A DNA stretch of 62,768 nucleotides, the filler included, from Collodictyon triciliatum (Eukaryota), in assembly GCA_043381765.1 (NCBI GenBank). It is 14 parts of 14 records of this genome, joined end to end, with 100 filler letters (N's around TTAATTAATTAA, not from the genome) between each part and the next. Parts side by side here need not be neighbours in the genome. Positions count along the whole stretch, not along the records: positions 30,742 to 35,185 come from JBHJMP010006089.1; 13 more parts are not named here. The stretch is one strand, 5' to 3'. Below the pieces are notes generated by a model that saw nothing but the letters and a program-made list of their open reading frames with translations, had not been told where the DNA came from and ran no database searches. The position numbers and the translations under genes were made by a program. Positions 4,448 to 53,148 of this stretch are shown one piece after another (position 1 is the first letter of the stretch; each line of letters opens with the position of its first letter).

Positions 4448-4547
4448 NNNNNNNNNNNNNNNNNNNNNNNNNNNNNNNNNNNNNNNNNNNNTTAATTAAT
4501 TAANNNNNNNNNNNNNNNNNNNNNNNNNNNNNNNNNNNNNNNNNNNN
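4448..4547. other. Artificial scaffold spacer N44-TTAATTAATTAA-N44 (first of 13)
   Basis: Identical 100-bp spacers at 4448, 8994, 12458, 17005, 21551, 26097, 30642, 35186, 39730, 44274, 52382, 56923 and 61465. The 12-mer places stops in all six frames. Confidence 0.98.
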
Positions 4548-4732
4548 TTTCTTTTCTTTTCTTTTCTTTTCTTTTCTTTTCTTTTCTTTTCTTTTCTTTT
4601 CTTTTCTTTTCTTTTCTTTTCTTTTCTTTTCTTTTCTTTTCTTTTCTTTCTTGTTAGGTTCCTATATTTCATCTGGATTTCCCCTTAAAAAACATAAAAC
4701 TGCTTCTTTTCCTTTTTCCTCGTTCCGCAAAG

Positions 4733-6672
4733 TATCCGTTGTTTCGCTTCATCAGCGCCCTCTATGTGGCGACGTTGTTGCGAAAGCGCGAAGGGACCGT
4801 CGACCGCAGATTCTGGCTTCACAGCCTTGCTATGACTGTGTTGGTGACCTTTGCAGGTGCTTATCATAGTTTATAGAGAATAACATAATGTTATACACCC
4901 TTCTTTACACGGTGTTCATTTTACAAATTCACATGTTCAATTATTTTGATTTTGTTCATTCTTTTTCTTTTCTTTTCTTTTCTTTTCTTTTCTTTTCTTT
5001 TCTTTTCTTTTCTTTTCTTTTCTTTTCTTTTCTTTCTATTTTTCTCTTTCTTTTTTCTCTTTCTTTTTTCTCTTTCTTTTTTCTCTTTCTTTTTTCTCTT
5101 TCTTTTTCCTCTTTCTTTTTCCTCTTTCTTTTTCCTCTTTCTTTTTTCTCTTTCTTTTCTTTTCTTTTCATTTTAGGCGGCACTTTTGTCAGCCTTTTCA
5201 CCGGGCAAGTTCCTTACTTCATCAAATCTGCTGATAAGGACTTTGTCGTCGTTGCTGTTGCATGGTTCCCTCTTTTTTTTATTCTTTTTTCCGCCATAAA
5301 ATCAATGTTTATTATATAAATTATACTTTAACTGCTGCAGTATATCTTACTTGGATTTTAACTCATGATTCCTATTCCAAGGTATTTTGTTCAAGTGTCT
5401 CCTTTTGATATTGTTTACAAAGCACTGTTGCAACCAACTTTAAAGGTTATCTACATATTTTTGCATATATAATTAAGTATTCCATCAGAAAGATATGATG
5501 AAGGCAAACGTATCCCTCGTGATTATGTTACATTCAAAAGTTGTAAAACAAATGCTTTACTGAATGATTGAATATACTAATTGCTCTCTCTCTATCTATC
5601 TCTGGTTAGCTTCTCTTGGTCATGCTTTATTCGATCGCGCAAATGAAGAGTCATCTATCCACAATCGCAACTGCATACAAAGGCGTGGATAATCAAATGT
5701 ATTCTGCCCTTTTGCTTTCATCGATATCAGGTTAGATGAAAATCTTAAGAAAGCCTTATGCGCATCTTTCAATAAAGTTGAAGTCTATCTCCGACAATTA
5801 TTACTTTTCTTCTTTATTTCTTTGTTTCTTCGTTTCTTCGTTTCTTTGTTTCTTCGTTTCTTCGTTTCTTCGTTTCTTCGTTTCTTCGTTTCTTCGTTTC
5901 TTTGTATTTTCTCAAATCTCAATTCGTGCAGGTTGAGAAACTTAACTCATTTGTTGCTTTCACTTTTTTTTTCTCAATCACACACAGCTTAATGATGTCT
6001 TCATATTTGTATCTACCATCACAACACCCAATCCAAACTTCATTTTACTCATTTCTTCTTTATTTATCTCTTGTTGGATATACACAATTTCTGGGTTGAT
6101 TATACTATTTCTTTGAAGAAAAAAACACTTTGTAGGATTCGCCTCGCCACTCATCATGAACATTGAATCCTGCCTCCGTTTGAGAGATGATTCATTCTTT
6201 TTATCCGAGGGAAATCGGTACGCACAAACTCACACCAATGAAAGAAAAAAAAACCAAACCAAAAAAAAAAAAGGATTAATAATATTTCAAATGTTGAGGA
6301 ATAGAAAAAATATGTGCCTTCATAACTCTTTGCAACTTACCAAAGCAGCGCTCTCTCCAGCCATATTATGTGTTTCCTTATATGAATAATGAATAATAAA
6401 ATATATATATATAAACATGTAGCTCGGTGCAGATGACTTTCCTTGCGAGCGTCCTCTTTTTCTACCACAACCACTCGTCTTTCCTCGCTTTCCTGCACCC
6501 GTTCGTCCCTGTGCCTTCCATCATCCAAACACGTGTTGCAATGGCTCTGCTCTTCCTGTACAGCAACATTGCCACATTCGTGTCCGCATCGATTAAGCCG
6601 TTCTTTTTGCTCGACTTTATCTTTTACAGCGTGACTTTCCTTCATGGACACAAGGCTGAATCCAAACAATGA
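4733..6672 (+). CDS. TMEM38: Trimeric intracellular cation channel (TRIC/TMEM38 family), 5' partial, 6 exons seen
   Basis: Phase-consistent exons: YPLFRFISALYVATLLR...HSLAMTVLVTFAG/GTFVSLFTGQVPYF...VAVAW/YFVQVSPFDIVYK...LK/LLLVML...LLLSSISG/FASPLIMNIESCLR.../SVQMTFLASVLF...AESKQ*. Matches the TRIC motifs FAG..l..ll.G.P and WY.v..sPfD.v. Confidence 0.75.
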
Positions 6673-7235: not shown

Positions 7236-8795
7236 CTACTTTTCAGGGTCGTAATGCTTGACAAGGCTTAAAATATTGACTTTGTTGGTCTCGACAATGT
7301 GTCCATTCGCTACCATTTCATCCAAAATCATGTGTGCTTTGTCCAAGTGCATGACAATCTGTAAGCACCGAAGTCAAGGAAGCGTAAAAGGATAACAATA
7401 ATTCATTTTTAGTCGGCATAAACAGAATATATTCTCAAAAGAAAGAAGAAAATAACGAATTGAGCGCGAGTATGCATCGAGAGAAGCATTGTTGGCAAAT
7501 CATGATAATCACAAAGCTTTTATCAACAATTTTGTTTTTTTGTTGAGATTTTGCGTTAGAGAAGATATATTGCTGAAAATGTATTTGCATAAAGGATACA
7601 TCCAACTCGCACTGTGTTTTTCGTTTGATTATTGCGGTGTTGATGGAAGTATCAGCAAATTCATATGAAACGGCGTGCAAATATTCACGTTGTGCAGAAT
7701 AGCGTTTACAGTTTTTGGTTTTGTAAAGTTGGCCAAGTTAAAAAAAAATCACGTCATTGTTGTGTCAAAACTGAATGATAATTAGATACAGCTTTTACAA
7801 AAAATAAAATATATTAATATAATAGTAGTATGACCGTATAAAATACAAGATACTTTTCAAGTGCAAAATCAAAATACCCACCACATTTTCAAAGTACTGG
7901 TCCAAAGTCTCCACGAAGCAATGCACAAACTCGAGAATTGAAAGCTCATTCTATTTTTTAAAAAATAAATTATCCCATTCATACAAACAGCGAAGAATAT
8001 TTGTGCGTCGTAATTATCATGGTTGCATGTTGTTTATAGGAAAAATTGAAAAAGAAAAGATATGGCTCGGTCATTTGTGTTAAAATCATAATCATAATCA
8101 AAATCAAAATCAATTAAAAGCAATCAAAATCAATCAAAATCAATCAAAATCAATCAAAATCATAATGATTCAGCTCGTTTCGGATGCATAAGGCCTCAAT
8201 GGAAAAAACCTCGGTTTGGTCGATACCGACGACAAAGAACAGGGATGCGTAACGCCGGTAAACAAGCTTGTAATTCATATACTCGACGATGGAACACTGT
8301 TAAATACATATAATAATAAAAAAAAATGGCTTGTCAAAATCAATTTACTTCTCAAAGCTTCAATCACATCGATGAAAGTAGAAAAGCATGGGTGTTTCGA
8401 CGATGAATCATAAAGCTAAAGATTAACAAAAGTCCTCAAAAAAAGAAAAAAAGAAACGACAAGAAGGAGGACGGACGACACTTTTGTGAAAGCTGGGGTA
8501 TTATAAAATACTTGCATGAGCATTTGGAATAGGCAAAATAGATATGAAAGTTACCACGAAACCAATAAGTCGGTTTAAAAAGACATGAGAATTAAAACAG
8601 AAAACAAAAGAAGAAAAAAGGAAAAGGTTATTAGGAAAGGGTGTGTCGGATACAAACCTGAAGCTCAGAGCGGGACATGCAGAGACGCACGAGACTGGCC
8701 TCCAGCGTTGTTCTTTCGTCGATGGAAAGCTGCTCGTAGTACTGGGAAAGGCGAGTTTGGCCCTCTTTGTTTGCGATAATGAGGAACTTAATCAT
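7236..8795 (-). CDS. AP4S1: AP-4 complex subunit sigma, complete, 5 exons including a 12-nt microexon
   Basis: [21 protein letters not shown].../[26 protein letters not shown].../[67 protein letters not shown] (TAG). The GQTRLS.YYE and NG.IVETNK motifs point to sigma-4. Confidence 0.88.
7359..7599 (-). other. U12-type (minor spliceosome) GT-AG intron
   Basis: 5' site GTATCCTTT (plus-strand 7591-7599). Branch site TTCCTTGAC (plus-strand 7373-7381), about 13 nt before the end of the CAG acceptor. Removal joins [13 protein letters not shown] in frame. Confidence 0.9.
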
Positions 8796-30815: not shown

Positions 30816-30947
30816 ACCCCCCTTCCTTCCCTTGAATCGAATAAAGAGAAAAATATTAACACTACCCTACTTGTATTCCCATTTATAAAAATGTTATTAC
30901 TGGGCGACTAAGAATTCCTCAAACTCTGAGGCACCCAGTATTCGCCG

Positions 30948-33383
30948 ATGGATGTCGATTTCACAGGAGCGGATCATAATCCAACAAAGTCGAATCCATT
31001 GTCTTCGGAAAGCACAACTGGCTTCAGTTCCTCCTCTATCGCCACTGGTGCTTATCCATCTTCATCCGCACTCAAGACACAGTTCAAAACCCCTGAAGGT
31101 CGCTACAGATACTTGCGAGAGTTCGGGCATCCCAATGGGAAGCCAAACGTCAGTGCACAGAAACCCACGCGCATTCAGTTCCTTTACCTGAATCACCGAA
31201 CTACAGCTGCAGAGCCCAATGTAGACCCACTTCAGGCCAAAGTCCTTCCTCCGCCTCTGTGTCCTCCGTCTCCAATGCGGCTTTATGTCTCATATAACAT
31301 CAATGAGTCTCTCTTCGTAAATGACTTCAATGGAAACGAACAGGTTTTTTTTTCATTCAAATGAACACATTCTCGCAGTTTGATGTTGAAACCCTCATTT
31401 CTAGATGTTGCATTAAAATCACATGCTCGACTGATTCATCGCACTCGTACTGAATGGTTTCTAGGTAACTCTAGAAAATTACCGATTGAGGTCGGCATAC
31501 CCGACATCCCACGCCATGATTCCATCGACTGTGCTGTCAAAAAGTGGTCAAGTGGGGATATTCCTTCTGATTGGATTTTCCACAGGAGAAATTTTTCTTC
31601 AAGACCCTGTCCAAAAATCTGTCAATAATCAGTACAACAAAGATGTATTAATTGTTTTAGATTATTCCCGGCTCATGCAGAAGACCAGAACAAAGTGTTT
31701 CAAAACATTTTGAAATCGAAATTCTTTTATTTTAATGTAAACATAACTGAATTTTCTTTGTATTGTATCACATATAGGGCTCTATCACACCATCAAGGGT
31801 AAATGCAGTCAGATGGCTGGGCACAACAAGCACTATATTCGTATCTGCTCATAGCGATGGTAGCTTGGTATTTTGGGATAGTAATCGAGAAGGAGAACAA
31901 CCACTGCAGGCACCTTCTCGAGAAACAGAGAGGTATATTACTTTTATTCTGTAATGTCTTTTAATTTATTTGTTTCTCTGATTGGATCACATGATAAACG
32001 ACTTGATACCCTTATTTCACACAAAAGGTTTTTTGTGACAAAATCAAAGAACCTAAAGACTAATCCCGTATCGAAATGGGCTATTGGCACCTCTGCTATC
32101 AAAGATATCCTTTTCATGATCTCCTCTGCAATTTCCTAAATAAAAGGGCTGAAATACTGTCTGCGTATAATATATGTGTACTGTCTCCCTCATGCTACAA
32201 TCATTTATTTTCGTATTGTAAAATAATGGATAATTTTCCTTTACCCCAAAAATACATGTGGCTTTTTCTCCGGACGAAAAACATTTCGCGACTGCTGGCT
32301 CGGACGGATTTCTTCGCGTCTTTGATTATGAGCAGGATAGGTTAATTTCTTCTTCATCTTTATTTTATTGTTATTTCATCTTTATTTCATCTTTATTTCA
32401 TTGCTATTTCATTGCTATTTCATTGCTATTTCATTGCTATTTCATTGTTATTTCATCTTTATTTCATTGTTATTTCATTGTTATTTCATTGTTATTTCAT
32501 TGTTATTTCATTGTTATTTCATTGTTATTTCATTGTTATTTCATTGTTATTTCATTGTTATTTCATCTTTATTTCATCTTTATTTCATCTTTACTTCTTT
32601 GTTGTTTTTCATCTTGTTTGATTTCTTGTTTGGTTTCTTGTTTGGTTTCTTGTTTGGTTTCTTGTTTGGTTTCTTGTTTGGTTTCTTTTTTACGAAAGAA
32701 GGGCGCCGTACGTTTTCTATTATTATTCTTCCTTTCAAATTTGTGCAAGATGGTGGGGTGTTGGCTTTGGTTCGCTAAGTGCGCCGTAAGTGTAACACTT
32801 TTATTTATTGTGATGCTGATATAGTATCGTGGCAGTATTCAAGAGCTATTATGGGGCTTTCACGTGTCTATGTTGGAGCCCTGATGGGAGATATATCGCT
32901 GTAAATCTCATTCTAAATTACAATGGTTTTCTTTCCATCATCATATTGATTAATTTTTTGATTGGCTGTTGATCTAGGCTGGGGGAGAAGACGACGTTGT
33001 TTCTGTATTCTCCTTTATAGAACGCTCTCTAGTTGCACGAGGGGAAGGACATCGCTCATATGTAAGTATGCTGTATGTATGTGGCATAGAAAAAAATCGA
33101 TACTCAACTCACTACCTTGTAGGTTAGCTCCGTAATGTTTGATCCGTTTCATTGCAAGGACACCACTTACAGAATAGGCTCGGTTGGGCAAGATGGGTTT
33201 CTGCTCCTCTGGGATTTTGCTGTTGAATCACTTTACAAACCCCGAACTGTAATTTATTATTATATATCATATGGAATAACTATTATAATGGTATTGGTAC
33301 ATCCCTTGTTTATGTATTGTTGTTTTTGTTTTGTTTTGTTTTGTTTTGTTTTGTTTTGTTTTGTTTTGTTTTGTTTTGTTTTG

Positions 33384-33414
<31 letters not shown>

Positions 33415-34293
33415 TCGTCTGCTATTTGCTCATGTGTCTTTGGTTTTTATGCGGAATTTTTTTTATTCTTCCTTTCAACTTTATGCGGAATTTTTATTAT
33501 TTATTTATTTCGTGGAAGTTGTGTACTGTGTACGGCATGTGTCTCAATTTCGACATTTATCTCATATAGATTTCAATTGGTTCCCGTCGTGAATCCAGAG
33601 CAATCAATGCCAGTCAGAATACTTCAAACAAGTCATCGATTACTCGACAAGGCTCTATTTCTTCCATAGGAACGCCTTTGATGGAACCCTTTGTTTCTGG
33701 GCGAGTGTTTTCTGAACCTGCGACAGGTATTTGGCATCCTGGTTATTACCATTTTGTGATGAGATATATATATTCATATACAAATGTATTGATTGAGATG
33801 CGAAGCATTGGTATGATTTAACTTAAGAAAATAAAACCTATAATCTAGATTTGGTCTTTCTGGAAGGCTGCATAGTTGTGGCTTGCGTTTCAGGCCATGT
33901 TAAACTGTTCGCAAAGATGAATGTGATACCAGCAGATGAAAAAGTAATTTAAAAAAATAAAAATGTTTATGGTGAAAGATACGCAGTATTTTTTTATTAT
34001 AAATAACTTCTTCATTTTATTGTAAATATTATTGTTTTCTCTTCAATAATACTAAAACAAAACAAAACTAGTTACAACTCGCGAGCGTGAAGGATATAAT
34101 ATCGGAAAATGTATGTGAATTGTATTACATATGACTCCATCACAACTCTAAAATAAATCGCATCAAGCTAATTGGGGTAACTGATCATATTATCACGGTT
34201 ATTTTTTATTTTATTTTATTTTTTTAGCAAACGCCATCCGTTGAGAACACAGTTGAACCAGACACATCAACAAACCAAGATGAAAGTAAATGA
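30948..34293 (+). CDS. WDR20: WD40-repeat protein WDR20/DMWD/CreC family, complete, about 11 exons
   Basis: KTQFKTPEGRY, LLIGFSTGEI, NPVSKWAIG...IKDVAFSPD...GSDGFLRVFDY, FKSYYGAFTCLCWSPDGRYIA/AGGEDD, VARGEGHRSY/VSSVMFDP, YRIGSVGQDGFLLLWD. TGA stop at 34291-34293. Confidence 0.92.
32105..32255 (+). other. U12-type AT-AC intron
   Basis: Begins ATATCCTTTT. Branch-like TTTCCTTTAC at 32235-32244; ends ...AATAC. Removal gives AAA G|AT GTG GCT TTT TCT CCG (K-D-V-A-F-S-P), restoring the WD40 repeat. No GT-AG alternative does this. Confidence 0.93.
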
Positions 34294-36798: not shown

Positions 36799-37430
36799 TT
36801 ACTTGCGTTTCTTGCTGGGCGACTCTGATAAAAAGCGATACATCGTTGTTTGTCTGGTATTCGCGGTAGTGGCGCTTGACCGTCCCCTGGCATCGGGACC
36901 ATGCGTAGCCAGCAGTGGACTTTACTTCACCGGGGTATGGATACGCATTTGTGGTTTTAGAAACATATGCTCCTGCTTGCTCGGACTGTCTTTGGTGTGT
37001 GAAGTTCCAATCTTGGATTTTACTTGTGCTTGCTCTTGCTCCTTGGTTCTCGGCACAATGAGCTGGGGCAGAGTAAACGGACTATCTTTGGTGGGCGCTG
37101 GTTCTTGTGTTGCCTTCGCATTGGAGTATCCTTTCGGATAAGTAACGAAGACTGCCTTGATGCCTCCAATCCAAACCACATTCACGTCAGTCTGAATGGG
37201 TAGTTTAAGGGGGGATTTCTTTCGGGGTTTGGAGATGCGCTGCTCTTGGGTCTTGCGATGTGCGGGCTTGCCCAGCGTTGGCGGTGGAGGGCTCGAATGT
37301 GCGAGGATTCTGAAGAGGAACCGAGATTTCCTTCCATGTCATCGTCGCTGTCGCTGTATGTGCGTATCTGCTGTGGGTCTTGAGGATTCAGTTGTTGCCT
37401 GGCCTTGGCTTCCTTGACCCCGTTGCTGCC
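36799..37430 (-). pseudogene. Degenerate intronless ORF with internal repeats and a C-terminal PIP-box/NLS-like end
   Basis: One frame reads QQRGQGSQG...QRQRR*HGRK...TKDSP...TKDSP...TPVK*SPLL...RQTTMYRFLSESPSKKRK*, with internal TGA (37339-37341) and TAA (36922-36924). GC-richer than its flanks. Confidence 0.35.
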
Positions 37431-40130: not shown

Positions 40131-44067
<3,937 letters not shown>

Positions 44068-44508: not shown

Positions 44509-47500
44509 ATGAGTGACGATGGCTTTGAGGAAGAGTACGAGTATGAAGAGCTCGAATTCGAAGCCGAGGGGTTTGACGGCGTTGATCTCCAAGAGTCCAG
44601 CTTCACTGAGGAAAGCTACGATGCTGAAGACTTGAACGAATATAAGTGTCTGACGAAAGGTTTTCTTGTTTTAATGTACATCGTATTGTAAAGTATAGCC
44701 CGTTTCTGAAATGAAATCTTTTCTTTTGCTGAATTCTTAATTTTAAAACGCCCCAGAACACCTGGAACAAAGACAGGAAGCTGAGTTCTCCAAGCTTAGC
44801 GAGGTGTTAAATAAAGATATTTGGTCCATCGGCGTCCTTTTGAGCCACTATCGCTGGAATGTAGACAGTATCATCGCTGACTACCTGGAAGACCCAGAAA
44901 ACGTATGCCAGCGGGTTGGATTGTCGTTGGAGGATGATTTCAGAATTGAGAAGGCAACGAATACACATTGCGGCATCTGCCTGGAGGAAAAGAGGGAATG
45001 CACAGGGATGCGTTGCAAACACTACTTTTGCTCTGATTGCTGGATAGATTATCTAAATTATAAGATACTCGAGGAAGGGTAAGACTATGAATTTCTTAAT
45101 ATCATGTTTTTTTTTTTTTTTTTTGGTTGTCTGTTAAAAAACCAACATATTAATTTTGTTTTATATGCCTTTTGCTCTTTAGTGACTTTAAAATATGAGC
45201 TACTTGTTTGTTTCGAACATTTGGTAAATAGGCATTATTTTTCAATAGTGCCACGGCTACAAGAATAATGTGCGCAGAACCCTGTTGTAATATCTTGATT
45301 GATGAAGCTTTCATTAAGATGTTTGTTTCGTCAGGCGTCTATGCAAAGCTGCGAAGCTTCATGTTTAAGTAATTCCTGAATGTTTGGGAGTCTTGATGCA
45401 TTTGAATAAGAAAAAGAATAATATCATTTTGTATGTCTCCATAAGCACATTCCAGGCTCCAAAATAGAATGGAAAAAAGAAAGCACGTATCTGCTATCCG
45501 TATTTAACATGGTGTTATTTCTTCTTTGCCCTTCTTTTGTTTGAATCTATACTAGGTCTCTTGTAGATGACAATCCAAGTTTGAAATGGTGCACTCGACC
45601 AGGATGCGAAAACGTTTTATCGAGGAGAAATGTCCCATTCTTTTCCGCTGCAATATGCGATTGTGGACAACGATTTTGGTAAATTTTCTTTCAGTTAATC
45701 CCTCAGAATGTGTGATATTGAGTTTTCGATCTTGCAAAATAAGGTTCAATTTGTAATAATAGTTTCAAGTGTTCTCAAGATGCACATTCACCAGTCAGCT
45801 GCGAACATGTATTAAAAATTACATTTTTCATGTATTCAGTTCATTTTCTATTATTTTAAAAGAAATTTCTTGTTTAATTGCTCTTTCTACAAGATGAAAA
45901 TGTGGACTGCAAAATGTAAAGATGACTCTGAAACGTACTCATGGCTAATTGTGAATACGAAACCATGTCCGAAATGTCTTTGTCCAATTGACAAGAACGG
46001 AGGGTGATTTTTTTATTTCCGCTACTTTAGATATGAACTTTTTTATAATATATTCAATGGAGAAGTCGAAATTTACACGATTTCCCTCCACAAATACGCT
46101 CACAATTTTGTTCATTCAGATGTAATCATATGACATGTGTCAAATGTCGGTATGAATTTTGCTGGGTGTGTAACGGGGATTGGAAGGACCATGGGACTCA
46201 GTATTACAATGTAACCTTCTATTGCCCATCAATACCTATTTGATTGGATATGGTATATCAATATTTATGTTAAAAAAAAAAAAGAGTATTCTATTTTGAT
46301 AATAATAATAATCACATCAGTGCAATCGGTTCGATCCAAATAAGTCAGGAAATGCCGAAGTTGAATCTTCCAAAAAGTCTCTGGAAAAATACCTTCATTA
46401 TTATGTCCGGTACGTGCTCTTTTAACACCGTTTCAATCCCTTGGTTTCGCAATTGATTATCTCCTTAAAAGGATGCACTGAGACTATATTATACCAAAGG
46501 TTCTCAAATCATGCGAGCTCTCTGAAACTTGAGCAACAAATGATGAGAAAAATGGAAGCCAAGGTCTTTTGACTCCTCTCAATGATAATAGTTAAATTTT
46601 TTCAAGTGTGGAAAAATAAAGTGGTTGGGCAATAATTACAATCGATACACCAAGTACTAATTTATATTTTTTCTGTCTAATTCTGCTGTGATAGATAACT
46701 CAGTTAATTCAAGGCGGACAAATTTCGTGGATTGATCTCCAATATCTTACGACGGCAGCCACTCAGTTGAGCGAGGTAATAATATATCATATCTAGCAAT
46801 ATAGGAAAATATAAATCATGGTATCCGACAGAATTTAATCAGAATTGCTATTTTCTTTTACTTTATTCGTGAAGTATGTATTTGTATTTATATTTGTATT
46901 TATATTTGTATTTATATTTGTATTTATATTTGTATTTATATTTGTATTTATATTTGTATTTTTATGTGCGATATTTTCAACATAATACTCAAATTTAAAA
47001 GTTCCGGAGAAAAAGACTCAATCGAGGTTTAATAACCATCAAAAGTGTCGTAGAATTCTACAGTATTCTTATGTCTTTGCATTTTATAAAGAAGATGGAC
47101 CTTCAAAAATGGTAATATTGATATCTCGACAACTTCGATGAAAGCATTGTGTCACTCTTTTATTGCTCCATTTAGTACCTCGATCCAAAAATAAATAAAT
47201 ATATTGGAATCCGCTCTGTTAAAAGTGAATTATGCCATCTCTAGCTATTTGAAAACTTACAGCAAGAATTGGAGCGGACTACAGAGTACCTGTCAGAGTT
47301 GTGGGAAACAACAGATGTTTCGCACGAAGCCACACACAAGCCACTCATTATATCAGAGTCTAGGAAAGCGCGCAATATGGTTCAGAATCTGCTCAAGGTG
47401 AGTCAATAGTTTCTTGGGAATCACACTTTCCGTGTAGATGCACAATTTATTTCACTTTTTTTTTAAAAAAAAACAAACAAACAAACAAACAAACAAACAA

Positions 47501-52381: not shown

Positions 52382-52481
52382 NNNNNNNNNNNNNNNNNNN
52401 NNNNNNNNNNNNNNNNNNNNNNNNNTTAATTAATTAANNNNNNNNNNNNNNNNNNNNNNNNNNNNNNNNNNNNNNNNNNNN

Positions 52482-53148
<667 letters not shown>

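Follow-up and report, generated by a model that had tools for sequence, protein, structure and literature searches.

The window analyzed here is a 62,768-nucleotide (62.8-kb) stretch of DNA from Collodictyon triciliatum (GenBank assembly GCA_043381765.1), and it contains an orthologue of the WD40 protein gene WDR20 that is interrupted at positions 32105-32255 (+ strand) by an intron beginning with AT and ending with AC. This intron is very probably a genuine U12-type AT-AC intron. Among sequenced relatives of the organism, the nearest is Diphylleia rotans, a member of the Collodictyonidae in CRuMs. It displays the full set of sequence characteristics of the U12 type; the kind is already known and the instance is new. 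A working minor spliceosome in this organism is most likely, as suggested by a second U12-type intron in the window, which appears to lie at the position of a minor intron in vertebrate AP4S1.

The consensus of U12-type introns consists of a 5' splice site of the form /RTATCCTT and a branch site of the form TCCTTRAY, which lies about 10 to 20 nucleotides (nt) upstream of the 3' end and is not accompanied by a pyrimidine tract. The elements of the WDR20 gene and its AT-AC intron are given below, where P0001 is a WDR20 protein of Diphylleia rotans and X1 is one of the public sequencing runs.

30948..33952, + strand: WDR20 orthologue, likely start codon to stop, at least 10 exons (P0001 tblastn and list of open reading frames [ORFs])
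32028..32104, + strand: upstream exon, ending in FFVTKSKNLKTNPVSKWAIGTSAIK plus base 1 of an Asp codon (joint 31930^32026, cut +2; high-scoring segment pair [HSP] of P0001 332-363)
32105..32255, + strand: probable U12-type AT-AC intron, 151 nt, phase 1 (sequence, contig joint and continuous homology)
32105-32114, + strand: intron start, ATATCCTTTT (sequence)
32105..32113, + strand: 5' splice site, ATATCCTTT, matching the U12-type consensus in 9 of 9 letters
32234..32244, + strand: branch-site motif, TTTTCCTTTAC, separated from the downstream exon by 11 nt
32237-32244, + strand: branch core, TCCTTTAC, with the likely branch A at 32243, 12 nt from the 3' end
32254..32255, + strand: 3' terminal AC (sequence and contig joint)
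32256..32340, + strand: downstream exon, beginning with bases 2 and 3 of the Asp codon, followed by VAFSPDEKHFATAGSDGFLRVFDYEQD (human WDR20, 5k19_A 227-250; X1 contig)

The termini are those of the AT-AC class (AT at 32105-32106, AC at 32254-32255), and the 11 nt between TTTTCCTTTAC and the exon, CCCAAAAATAC, include no pyrimidine tract. A first-pass annotation of the sequence had reported the intron start, the branch motif 11 nt from the end and the AC terminus, and all three were exact to the base. The variant branch site that it described was also observed, as a single-letter departure in TCCTTTAC, in which T occupies the R position of the consensus.

The first-pass annotation had also assigned the host gene to WDR20, an assignment that homology searches uphold. 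A search with exon 1 returned a single match among 258 candidates, the 588-residue protein P0001. When P0001 was compared to the window by tblastn, ordered, collinear HSPs spanned positions 30945 to 33943, most of them with ∼50 to 55% identity. Human WDR20 (6jlq_C) matched P0001 with an E value of 8.4e-72, compared to only 1e-23 for the next WD40 protein. Among solved structures, WDR20 ranked first for exon 1, weakly (E, 0.024), and exon 4 (25 amino acids) alone had no match. On the basis of the collinearity with P0001, the score of P0001 against human WDR20, and the matches of the downstream exon and exon 1, the gene is identified by similarity as a WDR20 orthologue, its resemblance to WDR20 exceeding that to other WD40 proteins. 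Metagenome contigs were also scanned for the orthologous DNA of relatives; P0001 as the query had 33 pattern matches and WDR20 exon 1 had 385, and tblastn confirmed none of them.

The bases flanking the intron read ...GCT ATC AAA G / AT GTG GCT TTT TCT CCG GAC, which places the intron in phase 1 within an Asp codon. Removal of the intron rejoins the split codon to give ...AIKDVAFSPD..., and thus restores the IKDVAFSPD motif as had been claimed from the sequence. The HSP of P0001 332-363 stops on the upstream exon and that of P0001 362-404 begins on the downstream exon, with no residue gained or lost at the joint. Retention of the intron shifts the reading frame (151 mod 3 = 1) and leads to a stop 11 codons past the junction.

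Of five public runs listed, four contain part of the stretch, and all four were aligned to positions 30930-32345. Runs X3 and X4 are recorded as metatranscriptomes, and at least 31 letters on each side are advised in order to count a bridge. The following joints were detected.

31341^31463: GT-AG, runs X1, X2 and X3
31644^31778: GT-AG, run X1
31930^32026: GT-AG, runs X1 and X3
32104^32256: skips 151 nt, AT..AC, found in run X1 only (one contig with a depth of 3 and 28 letters on its shorter side)

The junction 32104^32256, for which the first-pass annotation had proposed RNA mapping, was found exact to the base in the X1 contig. The evidence in RNA for excision at exactly these bases is thin but exact. 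The X1 contig over 32256-32340 continues into letters matching the start of the next exon, which indicates that the next intron (32341-32824, GT..AG) was also spliced, and the presence of spliced contigs in X1 indicates that this run contains processed transcripts. Two freshwater metatranscriptomes carry pieces of WDR20 without any differing letter.

The predicted proteins of Diphylleia rotans, which NCBI taxonomy places in the Collodictyonidae within CRuMs, provided a further view of this site. The protein cluster that includes P0001 has 8 members, all of which are D. rotans Trinity isoforms from EukProt, and 7 of the 8 read straight through ...SAIKDFAFAPD.... Isoform P0006 (Trinity DN6665_c0_g1_i12) begins with 13 unrelated residues and, from residue 361 through the C terminus, shows no difference from P0001; its departure is at codon 360, where it has His and the other isoforms have Asp. 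At such a junction, retention of a phase-1 intron would produce CAT (His) if the intron ends in C and GAT (Asp) if it ends in G, and the window's own retained reading (ORF 32234..32824) also gives His at the junction codon. The sequence of P0006 thus suggests that Diphylleia has a C-ending intron at the same WDR20 site and that this intron is retained in P0006. The peptide that precedes the break in P0006 (...FTLTLQH) might correspond to a word containing CCTTAAC at 8 nt from the end of the intron, a possibility that was given no weight. Isoforms P0001 to P0008 also vary in the N-terminal region, where they differ by two repeats, one of 32 residues and low complexity and one of 5 residues. In P0004 and P0008, the sequence that follows ...LYKTRS changes to another C-terminal tail; a further intron of the window gene is at this position, which suggests retention there too.

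The second intron with U12-type signals is in an orthologue of the AP-4 sigma subunit on the opposite strand.

8658-8795, − strand: AP-4 sigma exon, PF01217 positions 1-43
8210-8296, − strand: AP-4 sigma exon, PF01217 positions 47-75
7882-7950, − strand: AP-4 sigma exon c, PF01217 positions 76-98
7612-7881, − strand: GT-AG intron upstream of the micro-exon (homology)
7600..7611, − strand: putative 12-nt micro-exon (CELD), supplying exactly PF01217 positions 99-102 (homology only)
7359..7599, − strand: predicted U12-type intron of the GT-AG subtype, 241 nt, phase 0 (sequence and homology)
Start of the 7359-7599 intron, − strand: GTATCCTTT, with 9 of 9 U12-type 5' letters (sequence)
7380-7373, − strand: branch word, TCCTTGAC, 14 nt before the terminal AG
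7239-7358, − strand: AP-4 sigma exon e, PF01217 positions 103-139

The best solved relative of the terminal exons was human AP-4 sigma-1 (E, 5.1e-12 and 4.1e-7), compared to 3e-3 and 2e-3 for the next sigma subunits. The 7359-7599 intron falls exactly between PF01217 positions 102 and 103; its branch motif lies 12 to 15 nt before the intron terminus, and there is no pyrimidine tract. From these features, 7359-7599 is read as a U12-type intron, which would give this organism more than one such intron, in unrelated genes, and indicates that its minor machinery probably serves several genes. The remaining seven introns that were tabulated for these genes start with GTTTTT, GTATTA, GTATAT, GTTAAT, GTTTGT, GTTTTT and GTGGGT. 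None of these resembles RTATCCTT, and the two RTATCCTTT introns are distinct from all seven. The micro-exon is placed between an AG and a GTATCC word, and its definition as an exon would, unusually, involve both spliceosomes.

Mouse Ap4s1 appears as a minor-intron gene, with the 5' site GATGTATCCTTT, in supplement file 1 of Olthof 2019 (PMC6717393), and Table S6 of Olthof 2024 (PMC11347168) includes a zebrafish ap4s1 minor intron that is responsive in an rnpc3 mutant. The 12-letter word GAT/GTATCCTTT of the window is identical to that of mouse Ap4s1 in the listed entry. The last exon of the window gene aligns from residue 103 of human AP-4 sigma-1, so that the window intron precedes this residue, and the shared GAT together with the protein alignment suggests that the mouse intron is at the same codon. 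The two genes differ in the branch word, which is TTCCTTAAT in the mouse entry and TCCTTGAC in the window, and in the window gene the exon upstream of the intron is the 12-nt micro-exon.

Several observations weigh against the interpretation of 32105-32255 as a U12-type intron removed by a minor spliceosome, and the first of these concern the transcripts. The AT-AC joint is confined to one short contig from one run, and its 28 letters on the shorter side are below the advised 31. The RNA status of run X1 is only guessed, the cut at 32104^32256 can slide by 2 bases with no change in the product, and the junction is covered by neither of the metatranscriptomes X3 and X4 nor by X2. In addition, X1 has an unspliced contig across the AT-AC intron (32077-32285) with a depth of 7.1, and a second X1 contig is unspliced over the neighboring GT-AG intron. 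Unspliced contigs imply that unspliced molecules or DNA are present in X1. The greater depth of the unspliced contig than of the spliced one would fit a scenario in which this stretch is mostly unspliced in vivo, with a spliced contig that is an artifact or represents a minor species, and with most of the mRNA joined otherwise or retaining the intron. We consider this very unlikely. Retention would introduce a frameshift and an early stop within a conserved WD40 blade, whereas the joint restores perfect collinearity with both the Diphylleia and the human proteins, and 7 of the 8 Diphylleia isoforms read through AIKDFAFAPD. Furthermore, because the adjacent GT-AG intron is also unspliced in X1, unspliced coverage is not specific to the AT-AC intron.

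The unspliced X1 contig differs from the window at 10 letters and by a 1-nt deletion at 32248. Nine substitutions are listed, all within 32119-32229; the listed differences are intronic, and the exon flanks are unchanged. This contig may represent pre-mRNA or DNA from a slightly divergent strain or allele. Neither the 5' word nor the branch word is altered in it, an observation that carries no weight because the changes are few (chance, ∼1 in 6). Public data would then include a second strain or allele that is ∼5% divergent within the AT-AC intron.

The motifs by themselves are only mildly unusual. RTATCCTT occurs 5 times in the window, compared to 5.12 expected, and 61 of 100 shuffles reached 5; TCCTTRAC occurs 6 times, compared to 3.73 expected. 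A composite scan required the 5' word, a TCCTTNAY branch word within 1 kb, and the matching terminal dinucleotide 8 to 16 nt later, and it returned exactly 2 occurrences. In 400 order-2 Markov simulations, the mean number of composite matches was 0.43; at least one match was present in 141 of the 400 and at least two were present in 26. Both the chance-level frequency of the 5' motif and the simulations, in which a single composite match is not rare, also count on the opposing side, as they would be expected if the motifs were chance matches with no relevance to the kind of splicing. Such a coincidence is exceedingly improbable, because both composite matches start and end on exon bases that protein homology sets independently, and because one of them, in WDR20, is additionally joined in a sequenced contig. 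Chance would have to place the composite on homology-fixed bases twice, at ∼4e-6 per position (from the mean of 0.43 over ∼121,000 strand positions), and an intron of the ordinary GT-AG kind could not use AT and AC as its termini.

The remaining objections concern the machinery, the branch site and conservation. A search of the window with Rfam found nothing at the gathering score, a result for the window alone that says nothing of the remaining genome. At E ≤1, there were three weak matches in the window (snoR113, SCARNA7 and CrcZ), none of which is a spliceosomal small nuclear RNA (snRNA), and no minor-specific proteins were found within the 62.8 kb. As noted above, the branch motif has T for R at one position. 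WDR20 is not listed in the mouse/human table of minor introns that was searched, and thus no deep conservation backs the WDR20 intron: the gene had 0 occurrences in the 8 supplement files of PMC6717393, which do list WDR27, WDR11, WDR91, WDR1 and WDR41, and 0 in the searched supplements of PMC10639083 and PMC11347168. No literature that pairs WDR20 with U12-type introns was found.

U2-type AT-AC introns exist, and many protist lineages are without a minor spliceosome. Several lineages that lack it are listed by Larue and Roy 2023. It is conceivable, then, that the AT-AC intron is real but is removed by the major (U2-type) spliceosome, with the minor machinery lost and the motifs persisting as relics; the window, with neither a minor snRNA nor a minor-specific protein in it, is in keeping with this. 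We regard it as an unlikely explanation. Two independent introns have full U12-type 5' motifs (9 of 9 letters each), both lack a pyrimidine tract and have the branch motif 12 to 15 nt from the end, and the 7 other tabulated introns look quite different. Lineages that lost the minor machinery lost or converted such introns. Isoform P0006 of Diphylleia points to the persistence of the C-ending intron in more than one genus.

If the WDR20 intron is of the U12 type, its removal can be outlined from the established model, in which the U11/U12 di-small nuclear ribonucleoprotein (di-snRNP) recognizes the intron as a unit, through the 5' word and the branch word together. U11 would pair with the 5'-end ATATCCTTT, and U12 would pair with TCCTTTAC, leaving the A at 32243 bulged. 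The U4atac/U6atac.U5 tri-snRNP would join, with U6atac taking the place of U11 at the 5' site. The branch A at 32243 would attack position 32105, the freed exon end would attack after the AC at 32255, and exon joining would rebuild the split Asp codon in ...AIKDVAFSPD.... We infer both the dependence on the U11, U12, U4atac and U6atac snRNPs and the identity of the branch A. Because retention shifts the frame and leads to a stop after 11 codons, removal of the intron would be obligatory. The T for R in the branch word would set U opposite U in the pairing with U12. There is no sign of an altered U12 in this organism, as the second intron has the standard TCCTTGAC.

Other U12-like signals in the window were considered. 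A relaxed scan, in which one 5' mismatch was allowed and open flanks were required, yielded 5 rows. Two were the accepted introns, one was a variant 5' site of the first of these, and two were for 50452/50456-50876 (− strand). The last of these is a weak third U12-like candidate, with GTACCCTTC followed by TTCTTAAC 12 or 16 nt before AG; its open flanks extend for 20 to 31 codons, and it adjoins a gap of N's. Three further sites were rejected. The pair of GTATCCTT at 37126 and TCCTTGAC at 37411 (+ strand) is followed by no AG for ∼47 nt, in a region that seems to be coding on the opposite strand, and there was no fitting branch motif or terminus for ATATCCTT at 34090 (− strand) or for GTATCCTT at 43465 (+ strand). 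A loose scan produced many U12 matches, which were judged to be due to chance.

The window is rich in genes for the cilium and cytoskeleton, and the other genes in it include the following.

23199-24164, + strand: MORN-repeat ORF
about 26444, + strand: DEAD-box helicase exons
40631-42517, − strand: kinesin motor exons
44747-45082, + strand: RBR/Ariadne-like exon
52434-52967, − strand: centrin-like EF-hand exons
60943-61272, − strand: TTLL exon (PF03133 in the matched proteins)

The TTLL exon had 4 matches, of which the three best were Diphylleia paralogues (82, 72 and 68% identity). Matches of two unrelated genes, WDR20 and TTLL, thus agree in pointing to Diphylleia, although the ∼50 to 55% identity over most of the WDR20 HSPs indicates that the organism is a more distant relative and not Diphylleia itself; these data suggest a collodictyonid-like protist of freshwater. 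A protein-cluster search with the MORN-repeat ORF found only vague arthropod and bacterial clusters, and the homology search with the Ariadne-like exon confirmed none of 77 candidates. Introns and spacers are dense in short tandem repeats (units of 10 to 12 nt and di- and trinucleotide runs), for example at 32346-32690, 33330-33420, 4504-5300 and 21300-21970. There are 2136 N's across several gaps, many of which adjoin tandem repeats.

U12-type introns and their spliceosome date to early eukaryotes and have been lost many times. U12-type introns are widespread, and a lineage that is sister to Amorphea is expected to have a minor spliceosome; the present result fills a gap and overturns nothing. 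According to Olthof 2024 (PMC11347168), six of seven supergroups were covered (TSAR, Haptista, Cryptista, Archaeplastida, Amorphea and Excavata), and CRuMs are not mentioned in that text. The text of Larue and Roy 2023 mentions neither CRuMs nor Collodictyon, Diphylleia, Mantamonas or Rigifila, and CRuMs, Collodictyon and Diphylleia are absent from those supplements of the two studies that were searched. No literature was found that connects CRuMs, Collodictyon, Diphylleia or Mantamonas with the minor spliceosome, a topic that other papers or supplements may cover. If the window is from a collodictyonid, it provides direct evidence of minor-intron retention in the supergroup that those surveys lack. 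Each deep lineage that retains U12-type introns sharpens the reconstruction of the ancestral set, and the AP4S1 intron is seemingly shared with vertebrates.

A broader possibility can be put forward only tentatively: that collodictyonids, and with them CRuMs, still possess a fully functional minor spliceosome and have comparatively many U12-type introns, with an ancient AP4S1 intron and a WDR20 intron kept across two genera. The notion of richness comes from the finding of two U12-type introns in a single 63-kb window with about a dozen genes, which could reflect a high density or luck. Should this possibility be true, the AP4S1 intron shared with vertebrates predates the split between CRuMs and Amorphea, the WDR20 intron is one that is kept in two collodictyonid genera and is unlisted for mouse and human, and reconstructions of the minor introns that early eukaryotes had gain a new point of reference in the collodictyonid lineage.

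Two known kinds of AT-AC intron invite comparison with the WDR20 intron. U2-type AT-AC introns have neither the TATCCTT 5' word nor the TCCTTRAC branch word and depend on a pyrimidine tract. The WDR20 intron shares the AT and AC termini with them but differs in having TATCCTT and a branch word and no tract. The other kind comprises the U12-type AT-AC introns of animals and plants. As in the entries for WDR11, WDR1 and WDR91 in Olthof 2019 (PMC6717393), the 5' word of the WDR20 intron is ATATCCTTT, a branch of the TCCTT.A. type is near the 3' end, and the terminus is AC; as in those genes, a single odd intron is found among the GT-AG introns of a conserved gene. The WDR20 intron differs from the listed entries in that they have A in the branch word (TCCTTAAC) where the window has T (TCCTTTAC), in that its host gene is not in that mouse/human table, and in that it belongs to an organism of the CRuMs.

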